Source: Acidobacteriota bacterium
GTDB taxonomy: Bacteria > Acidobacteriota > Vicinamibacteria > Marinacidobacterales > Marinacidobacteraceae
DNA length: 64,000 bases
Direction: 5' to 3'
NCBI GenBank assembly: GCA_022826195.1
Contig: JAJDVI010000012.1
Location: forward strand, 71,583-135,582
This document shows positions 2,738 to 59,756 of the stretch, piece by piece. A program made the position numbers and the translations under genes. A model generated the notes under the pieces. That model was not told the origin of the DNA, made no database searches, and was given only the letters and a program-made list of their open reading frames with translations. How positions within the stretch are numbered: position 1 is the first letter of the stretch; every line of letters begins with the position of its first letter.

Positions 2738-2795
2738 TGCCGGCCTGGAACGCCGGTCTCCAGACCGACACCGCGGCGCCCCCCCACCGGGAGAA
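2738..2795. repeat. REP-like GC-rich palindromic repeat (reverse-complement orientation of the 32.5 kb copy)
   Basis: GCCGGCCTGGAACGCCGGTCTCCAGACCG...CGCGGCGCCC matches RC of 32540-32600 element. Confidence 0.6.
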
Positions 2796-2874
2796 CTGGC
2801 GCGCCGCGCACGTCGTAAAGCCCACCCGGCAAAGGCGGCTCCTACCTCGGCGTTGCGCTCGAGAGTGGAGGTGA

Positions 2875-2915
2875 CGCAACGGCTTGGAACGCCGGCTTCA
2901 GCCGGCACAGCAGCG
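2875..2915. repeat. REP-like repeat, core CGGCTTGGAACGCCGGCTTCAGCCGGCAC
   Basis: near-identical core at 6640-6670 and reverse-complemented at 17120-17150. Confidence 0.65.
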
Positions 2916-3003
2916 CGCAGCGCTGCGGGCGGTTCATCGCCACGGATGCTCAGGCGGCAGGGAGACGGGACCCGGCGGCCAGGGCTCCTACAATCCGCCA
3001 CCC

Positions 3004-6629: not shown

Positions 6630-6639
6630 AGCACGCTAC

Positions 6640-6775
6640 GGCTTGGACCGCCGGCTTCAGCCGGCACCGCGCATCGGTTCCTGAGCAGGGGCGTCGGCTC
6701 GGAGCGCCGGCCTCCGGCCGGCATCGCGCGGGAGCGCGAAACCCGCGTCGATGGCGCTCTCCGCGAATCCATGCC
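6640..6775. repeat. Composite REP-like mosaic element (two modules)
   Basis: module 1 CGGCTTGGACCGCCGGCTTCAGCCGGCAC; module 2 GGAGCGCCGGCCTCCGGCCGGCATCGCGCGGGAGCGCGAAACCCGCGTCGATGGCGC matches 58715-58775 with 2 mismatches. Confidence 0.7.
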
Positions 6776-7530: not shown

Positions 7531-7637
7531 CGCCGGGCTACGCGGGAACCGGCTCGGCGGCCGGCGACTCCGGCCAGAGAGGACCCAAGCTGCGGGATTC
7601 CCGCCGCCCCTTCGGCGCCGAGGTCTGGTGCGGCGAG

Positions 7638-9204: not shown

Positions 9205-9362
9205 TCAGGCATGTGTCTAATCCGGGTTCGGAGGGCGAGGCATGTGTCCTATTGGGAGTCGGCTGAATCCGGGCATGCGTCAATTCCGGGTTCGGGAAGC
9301 GAGGCATGTGTCCATTTCGGAGCCGGCTGAATCCGGGCACGTGTCCATTGGGAGCCCTGCCG
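9205..9362. repeat. Tandem repeat, ~63-bp unit (two alternating ~32-bp subunits) x ~2.5, lower GC than surroundings
   Basis: subunits GCATGTGTC(T/C)AAT..CCGGGTTCGG.A.GCGAG and GCATGTGTCC.ATT.GGAG.CGGCTGAATCCGG repeated at 9207, 9238, 9270, 9302, 9334. Confidence 0.7.
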
Positions 9363-9394
9363 GTTCAAGCGGCGCGCCGTGAGGTGGTTGGGGT

Positions 9395-9475
9395 TGCGAC
9401 GTGCGCGGCGCGGCGCGCCGCGCGTGCCGGTCTGAAGACCGGCGGTCCCGGCCGGCGCGCCATGGGGAGGCGGTT
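9395..9475. repeat. REP-like repeat (GTGCCGGTCTGAAGACCGGCG variant)
   Basis: GTGCGCGGCGCGGCGCGCCGCGCGTGCCGGTCTGAAGACCGGCGG aligns with 32540-32590. Confidence 0.65.
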
Positions 9476-15839: not shown

Positions 15840-16421
15840 ATGACACCGGTCGAACGCTACCTGACCTCCCGGGGCCTCAAGGAAACGGACCCGCAGGTCC
15901 TGAACAGCGCTCTCGCGGCGGTCCTGGACGGCATCGAACCGTTGGCGTACGGTGATGCTCCGGGTGGTCTGCCGGCGGCCGAACAGGCGGTCCTCCGTGC
16001 GGGTGGCTTGCAATTGGAGCCACAGCCCGGCCTCGATCCCTTGGCGATGACTGCCGTCAAGTACGCCGCCATCGTCGAGGGGAGCCTCACCGCGCGGGAG
16101 GTTGGCGAACGGTTGAACCTCACCGGGGGCCGAGTGCGTCAGTTGATCGCGGATCGGTCGCTCTACAGCTTCCTGATGGGTAGCCGGCGCCTGATCCCCA
16201 GATTCCAGTTTCGGCCCGATGGCGGGCTGGTACCGAACATTGCTGTTGTCAACCGGGTGTTGAGCCCCGGACTGCATCCCGTGGAGGTCTTCAACTGGCT
16301 TCACGCCAGAAACGCCGATCTCTTCCGGGACGAAGACCTGGATGCCACCGTATCGCCGCTTGACTGGCTCAAGGCGGGATACGAGGCCGCCCGGGTTGCC
16401 CTGCTGGCCCGTCGCCTGTAG
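15840..16421 (+). CDS. Xre-like/DUF2384 antitoxin (ParS/MbcA-like) of a RES-Xre TA pair
   Basis: C-terminal SPLDWLKAGYEAARVALLARRL resembles the DUF2384 C-terminal motif; immediately upstream of a RES-domain gene. Confidence 0.55.
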   Translation: MTPVERYLTSRGLKETDPQVLNSALAAVLDGIEPLAYGDAPGGLPAAEQAVLRAGGLQLEPQPGLDPLAMTAVKYAAIVEGSLTAREVGERLNLTGGRVRQLIADRSLYSFLMGSRRLIPRFQFRPDGGLVPNIAVVNRVLSPGLHPVEVFNWLHARNADLFRDEDLDATVSPLDWLKAGYEAARVALLARRL

Positions 16422-16427
16422 GGCGCG

Positions 16428-17066
16428 GTGCCCAAACTACCGAACCGGCCGGATCCCGCCCGACTGCGGGATCGCGAGCCCCACCTGATCTCGCTGCCTG
16501 CCGGCTCGACGCTCCACCGGGTGTATCGCCGGGGCGGCCCGTACCCCACGCTCTGGAACGCGTTTCGTTTCTTCGGTCCTACTTCGGCGCGGTTCGATCA
16601 CCACCTGCCGGATGGTTCCGGTGAGCCGCGTGAACAGGAGCGGGGCGTGTTGTACGCGGCGGCGGACATCGTCACGGCGTTGGCCGAGGCCTTTCAGCAG
16701 CGACGCACCGTGAACCGGCGGGCGGATCGCCCGTGGCTCGTTTCGTTTGCGCTGTCCCGCGAACTGACATTGCTCGACCTGACGGGTACCTTCCCGGTGA
16801 GCGTGGGCGGCTCCATGACACTCGTGACCGGTCCGGCGCTCCACGCGCAGAACTGGTCCCGCGGCTTCCACGATGCGTACCCGACGATCGAGGGGCTCTA
16901 CTACCCCGGTTCCCTGACAAATCGGCCCGTCGTGGCGCTCTACGAACGGGCGCTGGACCTGGGTCCGTTTCCCGCGACCCCGACGGTTCACCGAGCGCTG
17001 GATGACCCGTTGTTGATCGAACCGCTCCGGAACGCCTGCCGTACCCTCGGCTACGACCTGCTGTGA
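16428..17066 (+). CDS. RES-domain toxin (putative NAD+ glycohydrolase)
   Basis: R-E-S triad context: SARFDHH (Arg), YAAADIVTALAE (Glu), GLYYPGS (Ser); ~212 aa. Confidence 0.65.
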   Translation: MPKLPNRPDPARLRDREPHLISLPAGSTLHRVYRRGGPYPTLWNAFRFFGPTSARFDHHLPDGSGEPREQERGVLYAAADIVTALAEAFQQRRTVNRRADRPWLVSFALSRELTLLDLTGTFPVSVGGSMTLVTGPALHAQNWSRGFHDAYPTIEGLYYPGSLTNRPVVALYERALDLGPFPATPTVHRALDDPLLIEPLRNACRTLGYDLL

Positions 17067-17094
17067 TCGCGGTGCGCCTTCTCGGCGGATTGGA

Positions 17095-17160
17095 TTTGTC
17101 CCGCCGCCCGCCTGCGGCGGGCTGTGCCGGCTGAAGCCGGCGTTCCAAGCCGTTACTGCG
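17095..17160. repeat. REP-like repeat plus GC hairpin
   Basis: GTGCCGGCTGAAGCCGGCGTTCCAAGCCG is the exact reverse complement of the 2880 core; preceded by hairpin GCCCGCCTGCGGCGGGC. Confidence 0.7.
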
Positions 17161-31292: not shown

Positions 31293-32489
31293 ATGCGGCT
31301 TGGTTCCTTCCTTCGCCAGTGCCAGGCGGTGACCCGCTACAATCTGGAGACGATCTGGGAGCGGCGCGCCGTTTCGGTGGTCGCGATCTTCGGCATTGCC
31401 GGAGTCGTCGGCGTGATGGTGGCCGTCCTGTCGATGGCGGCCGGTTTCCGTTCGGTGGTCACCGGGCAGGCCCGCGACGACGTGGCGGTGGTGCTCCGGA
31501 GCGGCTCCACCGGCGAGTCGGACAGCATCCTGAACCATCAGGACATCCAGGTCCTCTGGGAGGCGCCGGGAGTGGCGCGCGGCCCCGACGGCCCGCTCGT
31601 CTCGCCGGAGCTGTTCGTGATCATCGACCGCAAGAAGATCGGCGCCGGCACCGACGCCAACGTCCCGCTCCGGGGCGTCGAGACGGCCGGTTTCGCGCTC
31701 AGGGAGCAGTTCGAGATCGTCGAGGGCCGGAACTTCGAACCGGGCCGGAACGAGGTGATCGTGGGCGACGGGGCGGCCGGCGCCTTCGAGGGCCTGTTGG
31801 TCGGAGACCGGATCGACGTGGGCCGCACCTCCTGGGAGGTGGTCGGGCGCTTCACTGCGGGCGGCGGGGTTGCCGAATCGGAGATCTGGACCGACACCCG
31901 CGTGCTCCAGGCGATGTACCAGCGGGGGAACTCCTGGAACGTGGCCCTGGTGCGGCTCCGGGACGCCGAGGCGTTCGAGGGCTTCGAGGCGGCGCTCACC
32001 GACGATCCGCGGGTCAGCCTCGGCGCCCGCCGGCAGACGGCCTACATGGCGGCGCAGTCGGAGCCCATCGAGGTGTTCATCTCGGTGGTCGGCTGGATCA
32101 TCGTGGTCATGATGTCGGCGGGCGCGGTGTTCGCGGCGCTCAACACCATGTACGCGGCGGTGTCCTCCCGCTCGCGCGAGATCGCGACCCTGCGCGCGCT
32201 GGGTTTCTCGCGGTTGCCGGTGGTCGTCTCGGTGATGATCGAGTCGCTCGTCTTCGGGCTCATCGGCGCGGCGGCGGGCGGCGCGGCGTCGTGGTTCCTG
32301 TTCGACGGGTTCCGGGCCGCGACGATCAACTGGGCCTCCTTCAGCCAGGTGGCCTTCGCCTTCGAGGTGACGCCGGAACTGCTCGTCCAGGGGACCACCC
32401 TGGCCCTCGTGATCGGGACGATCGGCGGTTTCCTGCCCGCGGTGGGCGCCGCCCGCCGCAGCGTCGTGGGGGCACTGAGGGAGCAGTAG
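31293..32489 (+). CDS. ABC transporter permease, FtsX/MacB-type (2 of 2)
   Basis: same architecture as preceding gene; ends ...GGFLPAVGAARRSVVGALREQ. Confidence 0.75.
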   Translation: MRLGSFLRQCQAVTRYNLETIWERRAVSVVAIFGIAGVVGVMVAVLSMAAGFRSVVTGQARDDVAVVLRSGSTGESDSILNHQDIQVLWEAPGVARGPDGPLVSPELFVIIDRKKIGAGTDANVPLRGVETAGFALREQFEIVEGRNFEPGRNEVIVGDGAAGAFEGLLVGDRIDVGRTSWEVVGRFTAGGGVAESEIWTDTRVLQAMYQRGNSWNVALVRLRDAEAFEGFEAALTDDPRVSLGARRQTAYMAAQSEPIEVFISVVGWIIVVMMSAGAVFAALNTMYAAVSSRSREIATLRALGFSRLPVVVSVMIESLVFGLIGAAAGGAASWFLFDGFRAATINWASFSQVAFAFEVTPELLVQGTTLALVIGTIGGFLPAVGAARRSVVGALREQ

Positions 32490-32499
32490 GGGCCCCCCT

Positions 32500-32595
32500 T
32501 TCGCTGACCCCGGGCACCCCCGGCACGGCCTCCCAGCGCGGTGCGCGGCGCGGAGCGCCGCGCGTGCCGGTCTGGAGACCGGCGTTCCAAGCCGG
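32500..32595. repeat. REP-like repeat (GTGCCGGTCTGGAGACCGGCGTTCCAAGCCGGC variant)
   Basis: GGTGCGCGGCGCGGAGCGCCGCGCGTGCCGGTCTGGAGACCGGCGTTCCAAGCC; related copies at 9400, 2745 (rc), 58790 (rc). Confidence 0.7.
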
Positions 32596-32659
32596 CGGCT
32601 TCCTCCCGGCGGTGGGTGCCGCCCGCCGCAGCGTGGTGGGCGCCCTCCGCGAGCAGTAG
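32594..32659 (+). pseudogene. Relic duplicate of the 3' end of the preceding ftsX-like gene (encodes identical 21 aa, out of frame with the gene)
   Basis: GGCGGCTTCCTCCCGGCGGTGGGTGCCGCCCGCCGCAGCGTGGTGGGCGCCCTCCGCGAGCAGTAG vs 32433-32489: 9 nt differences, all synonymous. Confidence 0.6.
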
Positions 32660-32787: not shown

Positions 32788-33066
32788 GTGGAATTCGCCC
32801 TGCGCGACGCAAAGGCGCGACTCTCTGAACTCGTCGGCGCGGCGGTGGCTGGAGAGCGGGTCGTGATCACGCGGTATGGCGAGCCCGTCGTGGAACTCGT
32901 GCGGTGGCGCCGGCGTGGCGCTCTCGATCTCGAGCGGCTCGCGAAGGTGTGCGCGGAGCACGGCATCGAAGAGGCGCCGCCGGACGAAGCCGAGGCGATG
33001 ATCGCCGCGTTTCACGATCCGGCACTCAGCCGTCAGGTGCTGGGGTTCGAGACGGAAAGCGACTGA
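32788..33066 (+). CDS. Phd/YefM-family antitoxin
   Basis: VEFALRDAKARLSELV...GERVVITRYGEPVVELV; GTG start; directly upstream of a PIN gene. Confidence 0.6.
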   Translation: MEFALRDAKARLSELVGAAVAGERVVITRYGEPVVELVRWRRRGALDLERLAKVCAEHGIEEAPPDEAEAMIAAFHDPALSRQVLGFETESD

Positions 33067-33080
33067 GCGCGAGCCGGTCC

Positions 33081-33476
33081 GTGGGCGTTCTTCTCGACAC
33101 GTCCTACCTCTACCGGTTGATGAGGGCCCGGGCGAGTCTGTCCGGGAGCGAGCGGCAGTTTCTTGAGCGCCAGGACACCCCGATCCACGTCAGCGCGGTT
33201 TCCATTTGGGAAATGCGGCTGAAGTACCAGGCGCGCGACCGGCTGGGCCGGCGCAAGAGCCCTTTCGATCCACGAGAGGTGGTTGCCGCGCTGACCAGGC
33301 TGAACGTGGTGCTGCTGCCGCTCACCATGCGCCATGCGGCCGAGCGGCTTCGCGTTCCCATCACGCACCGCGATCCCTTCGACGAGCTGCTCCTGGTTCA
33401 GGCCCAGGTGGAGGGGCTGCGTCTGCTGACCGCGGACGAGCACCTGGTCGGCCATCCCTTGGCCATCACCCCGTAG
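33081..33476 (+). CDS. vapC: PIN-domain toxin VapC
   Basis: LLDTSYL, IWEM, HRDPFDELL, TADEHL acidic PIN residues; ~131 aa. Confidence 0.7.
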   Translation: MGVLLDTSYLYRLMRARASLSGSERQFLERQDTPIHVSAVSIWEMRLKYQARDRLGRRKSPFDPREVVAALTRLNVVLLPLTMRHAAERLRVPITHRDPFDELLLVQAQVEGLRLLTADEHLVGHPLAITP

Positions 33477-35753: not shown

Positions 35754-36176
35754 CTAGACGGTCTTCCACGGATCGATGACCGACACGCCGCACTCCCGAA
35801 AGTCCTCGGTGTCGCGTGTCGCGAGGGCCGCGCCGTGGGTCTTGGCGATTGCGGCGATCTGACAATCCAGAGAACCAATGGGGTTTCCGGCTTCGCGGCG
35901 CCGCGCACCGATCTCGCTGAATGCGGCGGCGGCAGCGCGGTCGAACGCCAGGATGCGCCCCGTGAAGGTTGCGCGGAAGAACTCATCGGCCATTGAGGCC
36001 AAGTGGCGTCGTCGTCTCCCGGCCGGCAGGATGGCGATGCCGTAGCGGAGTTCGCCTTCGCTGACGGAAGTGGTGAAGAGTTCGCCGTACGGTTGGAGCC
36101 GCGTCCACGTGGCAACCCGAAGATCCGGCTCAGGGCGCATCAACTCCGAAATCACGTTCGTGTCAACGATGGTCAC
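35754..36176 (-). CDS. PIN-domain toxin (VapC/FitB-like)
   Basis: VTIVDTNVISEL N-terminus, TRDTEDF C-terminus; GTG overlaps antitoxin stop. Confidence 0.7.
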   Translation of the reverse strand: MTIVDTNVISELMRPEPDLRVATWTRLQPYGELFTTSVSEGELRYGIAILPAGRRRRHLASMADEFFRATFTGRILAFDRAAAAAFSEIGARRREAGNPIGSLDCQIAAIAKTHGAALATRDTEDFRECGVSVIDPWKTV

Positions 36177-36433
36177 GAGAAGTCCTCGGAGCTGAAGTCC
36201 GGCGGGTCGCGCATCGGTTCGCGCGGTGGCAGTTCGAGTTCCACTCCGCCGATGGGGTCGACGATCCGCCGGATCGCGTCGTAGAGGTTCTCTGGCGGGC
36301 CGGGATCCGTCTCCACGGCACTCTTCAGAATGGTTCGCGCCTCGGCCTCCATGGATCGCCCGTTCTCCGCCGCGCGCACACGTAGCCGCTTCTTGGTGGT
36401 CTCGTCGAGGTTGCGGATCGAAAGGCTGGCCAC
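36173..36433 (-). CDS. Ribbon-helix-helix antitoxin (FitA/VapB/StbC-like)
   Basis: MASLSIRNLDETTKKRLRVRAAENGRSMEAEARTIL. Confidence 0.7.
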   Translation of the reverse strand: MASLSIRNLDETTKKRLRVRAAENGRSMEAEARTILKSAVETDPGPPENLYDAIRRIVDPIGGVELELPPREPMRDPPDFSSEDFS

Positions 36434-43972: not shown

Positions 43973-46135
43973 ATGGTCCCCGTCGTGAACCGGACGGGGC
44001 GGACCTACCTGGCGCTCGCGCTGGCGTTTGCGGCACTGCCATTCGCGACCGCCTCCGCGCAGGACGCCGCCGCCGACATCCGCAAGCAGGAGGCCGAGGC
44101 GCACTTCCAGCACGGCCTCCGCATGGTGGGCCTCCGCAACAACGACCGCGCCATCGAACTCTTCCAGTACGCGATCGCACTGGACCCCGACCATGCCGGA
44201 GCCCACTTCTACGTGGGCCTCGCCTACATCCAGCGCGGCTACACCAGCCTGCGGCGCGCCGACCACCACCTCTCCCGCGCCATCGCGGTCGACGGGTCGA
44301 ACCCGCGGCAGTACCACTGGCGGGGGATCGCCCGGCTGCGGCTCGGGGACTATCCGGCGGCCACCGCCGACTTCGAGGTGGTGCTCCGCGAGACCCCGGA
44401 CAGCGCCACCACCCTGCGGGCGCTCGGGGCCGCGCTGCTCCGGATGGGCGCTCCCGGTCCGGCGGCGGCGGCGCTGCGGCAAGCCGCGGACCTCGAGCCC
44501 GAGCTGCTCGAGACGCGCTGGAACCTGATGGTCGCGGCCGGGCGCGCCGGCGACGATCCGGACACGCTCCCGGAGCGCTACCGGCTCGACATCCCGGACC
44601 GCGGCGCGGCCTCTCCGTTCCGCTTCGAGGAAGTGTCCGCCGAGATCGGGATCGAACGCTGGTCCCGCGCCCGGGGAAGCGGCTGGGCCGACTTCGACGG
44701 CGACGGGGACCTCGATCTGGTCGCCCTCGGCATCCGGGATCCGCACGCGCTCTACCGGAACGGCCTGGTGGAAGACGGCGCCGCGACCTTCACTCCGGCG
44801 GCCCTTGACGCGGCCCTCTTCGACCCGCGCGGCGGCTGGTCGGCGCTCTTTTTCGACTACGACCGGGACGGCGATCCCGACCTCCACGTCACCAGGGACG
44901 GCTGGGACGGTGAGGACGCGAACAGTCTCTATCGAAACGACGGCGGCCGCTTCGTGGACGTGGCCGCCGCCGCCGGGGTTGCGAGTAAGGCGGACGGGTT
45001 CACGGCGGCGGTCGCCGACGTGAACCGGGACGGGCTGCTCGACCTCTACGTCGCCAACGGGGTGGCGACCCGGGGCGGCGCCCCGAACGAGCTCTTTCTG
45101 GGCGCGCCGGAGGGCCGCTTCGTCGAGCGCGGGGAAGCGATGGGGGTGGCCGACCACGGCCGCTCCGTCGGATCCGCATTCGGGGACTACGACGGCGACG
45201 GCTGGCCGGATCTCCTGGTCGTCAACTTCTTCGACGGCCCGGTGCTCTACCGGAACCTGGAGGGCGCTGGATTCGCGGACGTCTCGGCGCAGGCCGGCAT
45301 CGCCGCCCCTCACGAGGGGTTCGTCGGGTTCTTCTTCGACTACGACAACGACGGCTGGCTGGACGTCTTCATCGTGGGTTTCACCTCCGACATGGAGACG
45401 GCCCTGCAGAGCCAGTTGGAAGGGAAGGCGGTCCACGAGGGGAGCCGGCTGGCGCTCTACCGCAACGACCGCGACGGCACCTTCACCGACGTCACCATCG
45501 AAGCCGGCCTCTCGTGGAACCTGGGCGCCATGGCGGCCACCTCGGGCGACTACGACAACGACGGCTGGCAGGACATCTTCATCGGCGTCGGGGCGCCGCC
45601 CATGGAGCGGTTCGAGGCGAACCGGCTGTTCCGCAACCTGGGTGACGGCACCTTTGCCGACGTGAGCGCCTCGGCCGGGGTGGACGATCTGGGGAAGGGA
45701 CACGGCGCGACCTTCGCCGATCCCGATCACGACGGCGACCTCGACCTCTTCGTGCCTATCGGGGGCGCCTTCCCGGGCGACCGCCAGCGAAGCCGCTTCT
45801 ACCGGAATCCGGCGTCCCAGTTGCCGCATCCGAACGGCTGGCTCCACATCCTGCTCCGCGCCTCGGGCCTCCATCCGGACGCCGTGGGCGCCCGGGTCGC
45901 GCTCCGGGTCACCGATGCTCCGCAGGCGCCGGTACAACTCCAGGAGGTCGTGGTCGGCGGGGGCTTCGGGGTGACGCCGAGTCCGATCCTGGAATTCGGC
46001 CTCGGGCAGCACCAGACGGTGGCGGAGGTCACCATCCGCTGGCCGGGCGGTGGTCACCGGGTGCTGCGGAACGTTCCCGCCAACCAGCGGATCCTCGTGA
46101 TCGAGGACGAGCCCGGATACCAGGTCCTCAACTGA
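43973..46135 (+). CDS. CRTAC1/ASPIC-UnbV family protein: N-terminal TPR + FG-GAP/VCBS-like repeats + ASPIC/UnbV C-terminal domain
   Basis: signal peptide; repeated DxDGDGxxDL motifs (FDGDGDLDLV, DYDGDGWPDLLV, DYDNDGWLDVFI, DYDNDGWQDIFI, DPDHDGDLDLFV); C-terminal domain typical of UnbV_ASPIC. Confidence 0.7.
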   Translation: MVPVVNRTGRTYLALALAFAALPFATASAQDAAADIRKQEAEAHFQHGLRMVGLRNNDRAIELFQYAIALDPDHAGAHFYVGLAYIQRGYTSLRRADHHLSRAIAVDGSNPRQYHWRGIARLRLGDYPAATADFEVVLRETPDSATTLRALGAALLRMGAPGPAAAALRQAADLEPELLETRWNLMVAAGRAGDDPDTLPERYRLDIPDRGAASPFRFEEVSAEIGIERWSRARGSGWADFDGDGDLDLVALGIRDPHALYRNGLVEDGAATFTPAALDAALFDPRGGWSALFFDYDRDGDPDLHVTRDGWDGEDANSLYRNDGGRFVDVAAAAGVASKADGFTAAVADVNRDGLLDLYVANGVATRGGAPNELFLGAPEGRFVERGEAMGVADHGRSVGSAFGDYDGDGWPDLLVVNFFDGPVLYRNLEGAGFADVSAQAGIAAPHEGFVGFFFDYDNDGWLDVFIVGFTSDMETALQSQLEGKAVHEGSRLALYRNDRDGTFTDVTIEAGLSWNLGAMAATSGDYDNDGWQDIFIGVGAPPMERFEANRLFRNLGDGTFADVSASAGVDDLGKGHGATFADPDHDGDLDLFVPIGGAFPGDRQRSRFYRNPASQLPHPNGWLHILLRASGLHPDAVGARVALRVTDAPQAPVQLQEVVVGGGFGVTPSPILEFGLGQHQTVAEVTIRWPGGGHRVLRNVPANQRILVIEDEPGYQVLN

Positions 46136-51376: not shown

Positions 51377-51404
51377 GGAGCCTCTCTGTCAGGGCGTCTG
51401 GGGG

Positions 51405-51470
51405 CAGGGGTCTTTCGCCGCCCGCGGCGGCGGTGCCGGCCTGAAGGCCGGCGCTCCCTCCCTCACCTTC
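51405..51470. repeat. REP-like repeat variant with GC hairpin
   Basis: CCGCCCGCGGCGGCGG hairpin + GTGCCGGCCTGAAGGCCGGCGC. Confidence 0.5.
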
Positions 51471-58363: not shown

Positions 58364-58696
58364 ATGACACCCGAAGAACTGCAACTGCACGAGGCGAACC
58401 TGCTTGCCAAGAAGGCCGCCATCGAGAAGCTCGTGCACACGCGCGCCTTCTCGCGGACCCCGCCGCACGGAGATGACGGGGACCGCTCGATGGTGGCGAA
58501 CGACGACGAGATCGTGATCCAGCTTCAGCAGAACGACGCGAAGCTGCTCCGCGCCATCGACAAGGCGCTCGCCCGTATCGAGGCCGGCGAGTTCGGCATC
58601 TGTTCCGACTGCGAAGAGGAGATCCCGCGCCTCCGGCTGGAGGCGGTTCCCTGGACGCGCGTCTGCGTCCCCTGCAAGGAACGGCAGTACTCCTGA
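58364..58696 (+). CDS. DksA/TraR-family C4 zinc-finger protein
   Basis: coiled-coil N-terminus, CSDC...CVPC zinc finger. Confidence 0.7.
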   Translation: MTPEELQLHEANLLAKKAAIEKLVHTRAFSRTPPHGDDGDRSMVANDDEIVIQLQQNDAKLLRAIDKALARIEAGEFGICSDCEEEIPRLRLEAVPWTRVCVPCKERQYS

Positions 58697-58699
58697 ACG

Positions 58700-58945
58700 C
58701 CCCGGTTCGGAGCTTCCGGAGCGCCGGCCTCCGGCCGGCATCGCGCGGTAGCGCGAAACCCGCGCCGATGGCGCCCCCGGCTTGGAACGCCGGTCACCAG
58801 ACCGGCACGCGCGGTGCTCCGCACCGCGCACGGCGCAGCCCCCTGCGGAAAGGTGGCTCTCGCCTCGGCATGAGGCTCAACCGCACTGATGGCGCCGCCG
58901 GCCTGGAACGCCGACGTCGGGTCGGCGCCCGCGAACCGTCATCGG
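58700..58945. repeat. Cluster of three or more REP-like modules (mosaic element)
   Basis: 58715-58775 near-identical to 6702-6760; 58776-58840 is the reverse complement of the 32540-32600 type; 58880-58925 is a third GCCGGCCTGGAACGCCG copy. Confidence 0.7.
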
Positions 58946-58964
58946 AACACATGAGGTAACCCCG

Positions 58965-59756
58965 ATGGATCTCGGAATCACCGGACGAACCGCTGTCGTG
59001 GCGGCGGGAAGCCAGGGGCTCGGCCGCGCGGTCGCCGAGGCGCTGGCTGCGGAGGGGACCCGGGTCGCCATCGGAGCGCGGGGCCGGGACGCCCTCGACC
59101 GCACCGCCGCCGAGATCCGGGACCGTCACGGGGTGGAAGTCCTCGCCCACCAAGTGGACGTCGGGGACCCGGATGCCGCCTTCGGGTTCGTCCGGGCCGC
59201 CGAGGAGCGTTTCGGGCGGGTGGACATCCTGGTGACGAACGCCGGGGGCCCGCCCCCGACCCGGCTCGAGGACACGACGCCCCAGCAGTGGCGCGACGCG
59301 CTCGAAGCGAACCTGCTCTCCTGCGTGAATCTCGTGCGCGCCGCCCTCCCCGGAATGATCGAGCGCCGCTGGGGCCGGATCCTCGCCATCGCCTCGGTCT
59401 CGGTGAAGCAGCCCGTTCCCGACATCATCCTCTCGAACACCGCCCGCTCCGGCATCGCCGGGTTCATGAAGTCGCTCGCCAACGAGGCCGCGCCCCACGG
59501 AGTGCTCGCCAACGTGCTCTGTCCCGGCTACACGCGCACCGCGCGGCTCGTCGAGCTGGCGGACCACATTGCGGAGAAGCGGGGCTGTGCGGTGGACGAG
59601 GTCTACGCCGACTGGTCGAAGGACATTCCGCTCGGACGGGTCGGAGAACCCGAGGAGTTCGCCGCCGCGGCCGCCTTCCTCGTCTCCGAGCGCGCCAGCT
59701 ACATCACCGGCACGGTGCTCGCCGTGGACGGCGGCCACATCAAGAGCGTCACCTGA
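58965..59756 (+). CDS. SDR-family oxidoreductase
   Basis: Rossmann glycine motif GSQGLGRA, NAGG motif, SDR Tyr/Lys region. Confidence 0.8.
   Translation: MDLGITGRTAVVAAGSQGLGRAVAEALAAEGTRVAIGARGRDALDRTAAEIRDRHGVEVLAHQVDVGDPDAAFGFVRAAEERFGRVDILVTNAGGPPPTRLEDTTPQQWRDALEANLLSCVNLVRAALPGMIERRWGRILAIASVSVKQPVPDIILSNTARSGIAGFMKSLANEAAPHGVLANVLCPGYTRTARLVELADHIAEKRGCAVDEVYADWSKDIPLGRVGEPEEFAAAAAFLVSERASYITGTVLAVDGGHIKSVT

Follow-up and report, generated by a model that had tools for sequence, protein, structure and literature searches.

Positions 58700-58945 of a 64,000-nt stretch of an Acidobacteriota bacterium genome (contig JAJDVI010000012.1, positions 71,583 to 135,582; hereafter the window) very probably represent a stack of three units of a lineage-specific family of repetitive extragenic palindromic (REP) elements that goes with a REP-associated tyrosine transposase (RAYT) of the HUH/Y1 type, with arrays of units bracketing the RAYT gene in relatives. 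The unit has a defined two-hairpin anatomy and occurs in many copies between genes; its second hairpin covaries, units are gained and lost between species, and REP units and RAYT genes are physically associated. A preliminary description of this DNA had read the segment as part of a REP-like family possibly mobilised by a RAYT, an interpretation that the present results support. New here is the family in this lineage, while the REP-RAYT kind of bacterial repeat is already well known.

Architecture of the repeat unit

A total of 269 distinct units have been collected, with selection only on the core GGA[ACG]CGCCG and the first hairpin (hp1). The unit is ~65-100 nt long and consists of a leader, hp1, an A, a second hairpin (hp2), and optional tail modules. 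The conserved leader, CGGCYTGGA(A/G)C, is located at the foot of hp1. The bases C-G-G-C-T-T 5' of hp1 are each present in 68-86% of units and are followed by GGA(A/G)C, which is fixed by the search pattern. A weaker motif, (G/A)TGGCGC, is found ~15-20 nt upstream, and GTAG is absent from both strands at the foot of hp1. hp1 is a near-constant GC hairpin of 6-7 bp (GCCGG…CCGGC). Among 351 hairpin-bearing core matches, counted before deduplication, the types are GCCGGC-TTCA-GCCGGC (88), GCCGGCC-TCC-GGCCGGC (49), GCCGGTC-TCCA-GACCGGC (49), GCCGGTC-TTCA-GACCGGC (25), and GCCGGTC-TCC-GACCGGC (17). The base after hp1, a position outside the selection criteria, is A in 140 of 140 aligned units.

hp2 starts 1-3 nt past hp1; its sequence is variable, and in nearly all units the pairing is perfect. 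In 241 of 269 units, compared with 68 of 269 after shuffling, hp2 forms a perfect stem of 6 bp or more no farther than 8 nt from hp1. The stems are very diverse (GCCCGCC/GGCGGGC, GCGGCCC/GGGCCGC, CCGCTGCGC/GCGCAGCGG, GCGCGGYGC/GCRCCGCGC, and TCGCTCCCC/GGGGAGCGA), with at least 10-15 different ones, each perfectly paired, and the loops are mostly 3 nt (GCA, GAA, GGA, TCC). Since the pairing of hp1 is partly present by construction, only hp2 provides a fair test of pairing. In an alignment of units chosen by leader and hp1 only (A5), hp2 pairing reaches 86% and drops to ~30% once the 3' partners are shifted by 1-3 columns. Covariation scores 0.365 versus 0.129, the higher value being reached by none of 500 shuffles, with four pairs switching among GC, CG, and UA; because subfamilies have been amplified, this covariation counts sequences and not independent events.

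Two types of tail have been observed, and the modules often end in GATGGCGC. The short type (…AACCGCGTAC…, ~15 nt, GATGGCGC) leads to tandem periods of 81-86 nt, and the long type (…ACGTCGCAACCC…AAAGGnGGCTCCCnCCTCGGCGTGGAGCTCAA…GGTGACGC) to periods of 119-122 nt, with window copies at 2823-2877 and 58843-58896. A candidate third hairpin in the long tail is 81% paired, versus 51-67% when slid; it does not rise above shuffles and is absent from the RNAalifold structure.

Several other identities for the unit have been considered. A sigma-54 or ECF-sigma promoter (GGAAC…/GGCACG-N4-TGC) was rejected by eye, as the putative -12/-10 elements fall in the variable hp2. The attC, CRISPR, and small-ORF (open reading frame) readings were also rejected, given that the units do not adjoin cassette genes, that their spacing varies, and that the apparent start codon of the tail is GTA in several copies. 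A known structured RNA, which the preliminary description had named as the competing outcome, is not indicated by Rfam 15, where the whole window gives no match at the gathering score. A search of 58650-59000 at a permissive E-value returned chance-level matches only (E>1, 11-15 bits).

RAYT genes and the arrays that bracket them

In the first 970 kb of sequence, no Y1 transposase was detected by an HUH/Tyr regular expression or by phmmer with E. coli RayT. In a sample twice as large, with metagenome stretches included, phmmer (E. coli RayT) together with the HUH/Tyr pattern picked out an ORF at loci L124 and L129. This ORF scores 94.1 bits against the NCBIfam equivalog NF047646 "REP-associated tyrosine transposase" (cutoff 80) and 36.7 bits against Pfam Y1_Tnp, and it aligns to E. 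coli TnpA(REP) (PDB 4ER8) through the HUH (MPNHVHVL) and Tyr (YIENNPVKAG) motifs. In L129, a 1.4-kb contig, the upstream unit faces the RAYT gene, and a second unit lies 14 nt past the stop codon in the opposite orientation.

RAYT homologues of the same clade, with 69-86% identity, have been identified at L243 (OY821641.1), L245-L247 (JAJEIY010000077.1 and two KELL22 scaffolds), L248-L250 (ERZ25068633 and NGUY21 scaffolds), L251 (ERZ25067264), L252 (ERZ25072076), L254 (ERZ28763718), and L256 (VYGC01000017.1). The RAYT genes were examined at eight distinct loci (L124/L129, L243/L244, L245-L247, L248-L250, L251, L252, L254, and L256/L257), represented by 16 contigs or assemblies. At all eight, the covariance model R1, which was built from 140 units of related genomes, places plus-strand units upstream of the gene and minus-strand units downstream. 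The arrays can be long, with 6 units upstream (period 85) and 11 downstream (period 80) at L243, and 6 upstream and 3 downstream at L251. At L245, 4 units lie directly upstream of the RAYT gene, 4 beyond an intervening ParDE module, and 2 downstream. A more distant RAYT, at L253 (57% identity), has no adjacent units.

The position of the RAYT gene between gmk and coaBC-ung-priA is conserved in several species, as is a second position between thyA-folA-ridA and M16 peptidase genes, which suggests vertical inheritance. Two RAYT clusters can be found on the same chromosome-sized contigs, so the RAYT need not be single-copy. Because the flanking arrays interrupt assembly, many of the RAYT contigs reach only ~1 kb, and in many contigs of the collection an end falls within a unit. 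The gene models of the source assemblies give the RAYT proteins a conserved, Arg-rich stretch at the N-terminus, absent from E. coli RayT, of ~45 residues (…RVPARVRRRWPxSxPSARSEGHSG…), seen at L243 (4001-4708), L245 (4001-4708), L248, L251, and L252. The source assemblies also call unit arrays as genes: the 288-aa product of L243 4615-5481, which has no Pfam match, spans the 11-unit array.

Genomic placement and arrangement

Genes were called by a codon-usage model trained on the data. Among the units away from locus ends, 228 of 230 are intergenic and 2 lie inside predicted genes. With 11 units per 64 kb in the window, the repeats are short, many-copy, extragenic hairpin elements, as expected of a REP family. 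The number of units per intergenic region is 0.81 between convergent genes, 0.36 between divergent genes, and 0.21 between co-directional genes. Both orientations occur. In co-directional regions, 75 units run with the gene direction and 27 opposite to it, and the median distances to the preceding stop codon and the following start codon are 92 and 184 nt, respectively. Divergent regions hold 39 units.

These numbers bear on a reading in which the units are primarily functional RNA, namely factor-independent terminators or mRNA 3'-end stabilisers under selection, and the link to the RAYT is secondary or coincidental. This reading would account for the enrichment at gene 3' ends and between convergent genes, for the two medians, for the 75:27 bias toward transcription, and for hp2 pairing that is kept through many sequence changes, as for a selected structure. 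On the other hand, 27 of the 102 units in co-directional regions (about one in four) are antisense, and the 39 units in divergent regions sit where only promoters are found. Neither hairpin is followed by a T run (U in the RNA), and an intrinsic (Rho-independent) terminator has been rejected on these grounds. The unit at 51402-51465 is located within an operon whose genes are 6 nt apart in relatives, where a terminator would be harmful, and no Rfam family matches. Very stable DNA mini-hairpins, and not RNA terminators, typically carry GNA triloops, so the 3-nt, GNA-type loops of hp2 fit DNA hairpins better. Finally, arrays of 6-11 units flank RAYT genes. Taken as the primary explanation, a functional RNA element is unlikely; the 3'-end and orientation biases suggest that some added transcription-related filter or use acts on a REP family that goes with a RAYT.

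Among neighbouring pairs within 450 nt, 146 are direct, 41 convergent, and 10 divergent. The spacing of direct pairs peaks at ~84 and ~120 nt, and that of convergent pairs shows a sharp peak at 143-147 nt. Direct pairs are 3.5 times as frequent as convergent pairs, so direct tandem arrays predominate and REPIN-like inverted doublets are in the minority. The convergent doublets are ~170 nt long with arms of ~30 bp, and several loci on chromosome OY821641.1 carry such doublets, their centre being conserved. One of these doublets folds into a single long hairpin (z = -9.2).

The genes next to the units are ordinary housekeeping or secreted-protein genes, and an all-against-all blastp of 252 flanking proteins showed no gene family that recurs beside units. 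Toxin-antitoxin modules are located directly beside units at window positions 15840-17066 (a RES-domain toxin gene, 16428-17066, with an unannotated ORF upstream), 32788-33476 (PhdYeFM-PIN), and 35754-36433 (FitA-PIN). In two relatives, a strain-specific PIN/PhdYeFM cassette and a B-type unit (a variant with leader GGAGC and hp1 GCCGGCC-TCC-GGCCGGC) have been inserted together between an SDR gene and an antiporter-like gene (L003 11274-12089, L005 11288-12105). L002 carries a restriction-modification/DUF6339 island at this position.

Gain, loss, and persistence between species

The comparison of insertion sites across relatives, which had been suggested as a check on the family, shows units that are present in one genome and absent in another at three places. 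L002, L003, and L005 (~93% identical) lack the unit at 51402-51465, and their ABC_transp_aux and DUF4340 genes are 6 nt apart. At the 58.7-kb locus, the first (B-type) unit is common to all related strains examined, with leader, hp1, and the start of hp2 conserved; the same three relatives, L002, L003, and L005, lack the units at 58776-58963, with junctions that are not clean. Conversely, L061 (SB0661_bin_8) has a complete B-type unit of ~99 nt at the empty window position 7589/7590, with flanks that are ~95% identical. At its junctions, this unit has no more than a short, imperfect direct repeat, CTCCGG…CTCCCGCGG. The units at 6637-6752 are orthologous in L061 with few substitutions. Together, the orthologous units and the presence/absence differences indicate that units persist across speciation and also turn over.

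The same sites are informative about a second reading, in which a DDE-type insertion sequence gave rise to the units and mobilises them as miniature inverted-repeat transposable elements (MITEs). The ~170-nt convergent doublets, with their ~30-bp arms and conserved centre recurring on one chromosome, resemble such elements, and in L118 the sequence diverges exactly inside hp1, as at an insertion. However, no unambiguous target-site duplication was found at the filled and empty sites compared (51402-51465 and 7589/7590), most copies are single or in direct tandem and lack terminal inverted repeats, and no transposase-like gene family recurs beside the units. The only enzyme consistently bracketed by units is the Y1/HUH RAYT. 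A MITE origin is thus most improbable, and of the earlier label "REP/MITE-like" only the REP part is supported, the MITE part having neither a clear target-site duplication nor a link to a DDE insertion sequence.

The L118 junction itself is peculiar. At positions 1-138 of this contig end (GCA_022824885.1, JAJDZA010000044.1; corresponding to window position ~32570), 138 nt of lower-GC sequence, unique among all the sequence compared, replace the sequence to the left of GTCTGGAGACCGGCG inside hp1. Either the contig end is chimeric or DNA has inserted into the hairpin, the latter being known for some insertion sequences and REPs.

A third reading is that a host protein, whether a regulator or of the nucleoid-associated or gyrase-like kind, binds the units, which would be kept for chromosome organisation and would have spread by recombination and not by transposition. 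The leader and hp1 are highly conserved, the A after hp1 is invariant, and orthologous units persist across species that are ~6-8% diverged. E. coli REP/BIME (bacterial interspersed mosaic element) sequences are known to bind IHF and gyrase. Nevertheless, no particular binding protein is indicated, and this explanation does not account for the inverted arrays at every examined RAYT gene or for the gain and loss of single units. It is very unlikely as the origin of the family, and a host-protein role is compatible with a RAYT-associated REP family as a secondary, domesticated one.

Distribution among related genomes

The window is 100% identical to the ENA scaffold KELL22-1_SAMN22237329_METAG-scaffold_647 over a 15.6-kb overlap and 99.5% identical to contig JAJEEW010000110.1 of GCA_022820785.1. 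When CGGCYTGGAACGCCGG-N(4-10)-CCGGCAC was searched for in one genome per species, exact matches appeared in at least 107 genome stretches, and at least 120 further matching stretches were found in sponge and other metagenomes. The over-representation expected of dispersed repeats is therefore borne out. Among the stretches listed, 104 belong to 12 related Acidobacteriota metagenome-assembled genome (MAG) species, so the family is present in at least 12 such species, complete chromosomes included. The MAGs are labelled Vicinamibacteria, "Candidatus Marinacidobacterium", or Acidobacteria bacterium, and the isolate names SB0661_bin_8, RHO1_bin_67, and bin61 are presumably those of sponge MAG series, judging from the names only. 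Nucleotide identity between comparable genomes is ~81-94% in aligned segments.

Three of the listed matches lie outside Acidobacteriota bins, in Chloroflexi, Gemmatimonadaceae, and Janthinobacterium MAG contigs (L011, L082, and L094). The Gemmatimonadaceae contig, L082, is 87% identical to an Acidobacteriota MAG (JAJEIY), which probably reflects a binning error, and all three contigs are probably binning contamination. The statement that the family is undescribed for this lineage rests only on literature searches: neither these repeats nor "Marinacidobacterium" were described in what those on the lineage returned, and a broader search on REP/RAYT likewise brought up no description.

Units in the 64-kb window

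R1, run on the window with filters off at E<=1e-3, identifies 11 units at 7 intergenic loci, with 0 expected by chance. This is fewer than the "eight or more loci" initially counted, although the claim that all copies are intergenic is confirmed for 11 of 11 by the codon-usage gene call. The 29-mer core CGGCTTGGAACGCCGGCTTCAGCCGGCAC is present, as had been reported, at 2880 (+, exact), 6639 (+, 1 mismatch), and 17124 (-, exact), with 0 expected from shuffles. The sister variant occurs at the four sites given for it, 2751 (-), 9424 (+), 32564 (+), and 58788 (-), and at a fifth that had been missed, 51433 (+), with 0.03 expected from shuffles. The two copies of the 57-nt module, at 6701 and 58718, are real and differ only at the two positions that had been left open. 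The module is, however, not a separate element: it is the B-type variant of the same two-hairpin unit. The spurious peptide (V/M)RGAxRRACRSxDRRSxP shared by the ORFs at 9401, 32541, and 58831 is also real.

In the flagged segment, three units are stacked in direct orientation, with a dksA-like gene on one side and an SDR gene on the other. The first, of the B type, immediately follows the dksA-like gene at 58710..58774 (+; R1 match 58710-58769, 42.5 bits). It is followed by a unit at 58776..58842 (+; R1 69 bits, E=3.4e-13) with hp1 GCCGGTC-ACCA-GACCGGC and hp2 GCGCGGTGC-TCC-GCACCGCGC, and by a long-type tail or spacer at 58843..58896 (+) that ends in GATGGCGCC. The third unit, at 58897..58963 (+; R1 25.4 bits, E=0.001), is degenerate, with leader CGGCCTGGAAC, hp1 CGCCGAC-GTCGG-GTCGGCG, and an unclear hp2; it belongs to the direct-repeat family D4 and extends to the SDR gene start codon. 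The stacking that had been described is thus genuine, but the stacked units are direct and do not alternate.

A second stack is located at the start of the window. The unit at 2739..2822 (+; R1 50.7 bits, E=3.3e-9), downstream of queA, has leader CGGCCTGGAAC, hp1 GCCGGTC-TCCA-GACCGAC with 1 mismatch, and hp2 CGCGGCGC…GCGCCGCG with a 20-nt loop insertion. A long-type tail or spacer at 2823..2877 (+; …CGGCAAAGGCGGCTCCTACCTCGGCGTTGCGCTCGAGAGTGGAGGTGACGC), of the same module type as that at 58843-58896, links it to a second direct unit at 2878..2941 (+; R1 72.6 bits, E=5.7e-14), which has hp1 GCCGGC-TTCA-GCCGGC and hp2 GCAGCGC-GCA-GCGCTGC and carries the exact 29-mer. Further on, a unit with degenerate hp2 at 6637..6687 (+; R1 38.6 bits, E=1.4e-6) begins 8 nt past the stop codon of a Sortilin/BNR gene. 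The B-type unit at 6693..6757 (+; R1 match 6693-6752, 54.4 bits), one of the two 57-nt module copies, shows the order leader CTCGGAGC, hp1 GCCGGCC-TCC-GGCCGGC, AT, hp2 CGCGCGGG…CCCGCG, and GATGGCGC.

The remaining units are single and on the minus strand. The unit at 9390..9456 (-; R1 62.2 bits, E=1e-11), in the divergent region between a PALP enzyme gene and a carboxyltransferase gene, has hp1 GCCGGTC-TTCA-GACCGGC and hp2 GCGCGGCGC-GCC-GCGCCGCGC. It adjoins an array of a different repeat in the same divergent promoter region, with five tandem copies starting GGCA(T/C)G(T/C)GTC placed ~32 nt apart at 9208-9345. The 10-mer alone is not above chance over the window, its clustering is striking, and the array looks like a set of protein-binding sites. 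The unit at 17091..17154 (-; R1 67.5 bits; hp2 GCCCGCC-GCA-GGCGGGC), which carries the exact reverse complement of the 29-mer, lies between the RES toxin gene and dcuC and is opposite to both. The unit at 51402..51465 (-; R1 48.4 bits) lies between the co-directional operon genes ABC_transp_aux and DUF4340, in the same orientation as these.

The unit at 32530..32596 (-; R1 67.4 bits) is located downstream of a MacB/FtsX permease gene and is flanked by the real 3' end of this gene and a 67-nt pseudo-copy of that end. The 3' end, including the stop codon, is duplicated directly at 32423-32489 and 32593-32659 (67 nt, 85% identical; family D6), and the arrangement of pseudo-copy and unit is kept in all related strains examined. 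The duplication likely arose from recombination with a paralogue or from a hairpin-associated duplication. Elsewhere in the window, the direct-repeat family D1 corresponds to a protein with repeated FG-GAP/VCBS-like DYDNDGWxD motifs (43973-46135), which is ordinary and unrelated to the REP units.

Comparison with known REP systems

The E. coli REP/BIME elements and their RayT (TnpA-REP, YafM; 4ER8) share with the present family the short, GC-rich, extragenic, high-copy hairpins, the conserved 5' foot, and a Y1/HUH gene with the elements on both sides, inverted relative to each other. The hairpin of E. coli REPs is imperfect with a bulge (PMC3479197), whereas hp1 is a perfect stem of 6-7 bp. 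The foot is GTAG in E. coli and GGA(A/G)C in the Acidobacteriota family, and each unit here has a second, sequence-variable hairpin, unlike E. coli REPs. E. coli-type BIMEs are clusters in which Y and Z REPs alternate, with defined linker motifs between them; the present family has a mosaic of modules but is not a BIME of this type, as its clusters are mostly direct tandems with periods of ~84 and ~120 nt. The RAYT is 235-240 aa long with an Arg-rich extension, as called in the source assemblies, compared with 165 aa for E. coli RayT, and the hosts are Acidobacteriota rather than Enterobacteria.

The Pseudomonas REPIN-RAYT system (Bertels and Rainey; PMC3116915, PMC5581495) has in common with this family the persistent, vertically inherited intergenic populations, with hundreds of copies here by extrapolation. 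Inverted doublets that fold into a long hairpin and a RAYT gene at a conserved, repeat-flanked position are also shared. Unlike in Pseudomonas, inverted doublets are the minority here (41 versus 146 direct pairs), the RAYT has long direct arrays on its two sides (as many as 6 and 11 units) instead of a single REPIN on each, and at least two RAYT clusters are possible per chromosome.

The SMAG elements of Stenotrophomonas maltophilia and other GC-rich REP classes are small GC-rich stem-loops of comparable size and make-up (GCCGG…CCGGC) that occur in intergenic DNA singly, paired, or clustered and have a short conserved 5' flank. SMAG elements have a GTAG foot and a single hairpin, in contrast to the different foot and two-hairpin unit of the Acidobacteriota family. 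Rhizobium RIME and pneumococcal BOX elements are likewise modular and variable in tandem copy number, the modules here being the leader, the hp1 and hp2 types, and the tails. To our knowledge, RIME and BOX have no associated Y1 transposase, and we know of no sequence similarity between them and this family.

Proposed mechanism

By analogy with E. coli TnpA(REP) (PMC3479197), the IS200/IS605 family, and the REPIN-RAYT systems (PMC5581495, PMC3116915), the RAYT would mobilise the units. It would bind hp1 and the conserved GGA(A/G)C foot on single-stranded DNA and would then cut and rejoin the single-stranded unit. In this way, units would be dispersed to intergenic DNA singly or as inverted doublets, leaving no clear target-site duplication, and the arrays would grow and shrink through slippage or unequal recombination. 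A host-level role, such as mRNA 3'-end stabilisation, may be superimposed on this process.

Several observations weigh against this picture. The RAYT that had been supposed to lie elsewhere does exist in congeneric genomes, bracketed by inverted arrays, but the window has none by HUH/Tyr pattern or phmmer. Contig look-ups and a cluster listing gave RAYTs only in related species or other samples, none of them tied to the genome of the window, and the nearest genome shown with a RAYT is that of a related species. E. coli TnpA(REP) requires a hairpin with a conserved 5' GTAG foot on single-stranded DNA (PMC3479197), and the foot here is GGA(A/G)C. Most clusters are direct tandems and not the inverted doublets that are regarded as replicating in Pseudomonas. 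The 75:27 orientation bias points to some transcription-related selection, which a purely selfish DNA model does not predict. No significant replication-strand bias was detected with local GC skew as a proxy (p=0.07), which is a weak test. Identity between window copies is only 85-94% (over 33-77 nt), which gives no indication that a burst occurred very recently. Finally, the filled and empty sites come from lineages that are 5-8% diverged, with junctions ambiguous by up to ~9 nt; as a result, precise deletion is indistinguishable from insertion.

More tentatively, and with considerable doubt on our part, the family may represent a distinct REP-RAYT type. Its mobile unit would be bipartite, composed of a constant recognition hairpin with a non-GTAG foot and a second hairpin that diversifies yet stays perfectly paired. 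It would propagate and persist mainly as direct arrays and not as REPIN doublets, and such arrays would accumulate around RAYT genes with the Arg-rich extension. The paired yet variable hp2 could result from a process that preserves the palindrome, for example correction templated by the hairpin or selection during transposition.

Implications

The REP-RAYT system described here is documented in uncultured marine and sponge-associated Acidobacteriota, outside the mostly studied Proteobacteria, and the physical REP-RAYT link stands out for its clarity, as arrays on a single side of the RAYT gene reach 11 repeats. For MAGs of this lineage, the repeats break short-read assemblies, yield spurious ORF calls, and can mislead binning; conversely, the repeat could help to flag binning contamination. 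The combination of a constant and a hypervariable stem in one unit provides a simple substrate series for testing RAYT recognition. If the distinct type is real, it would extend REPIN-RAYT biology beyond the Proteobacteria and would offer a natural test of the features that a RAYT reads.

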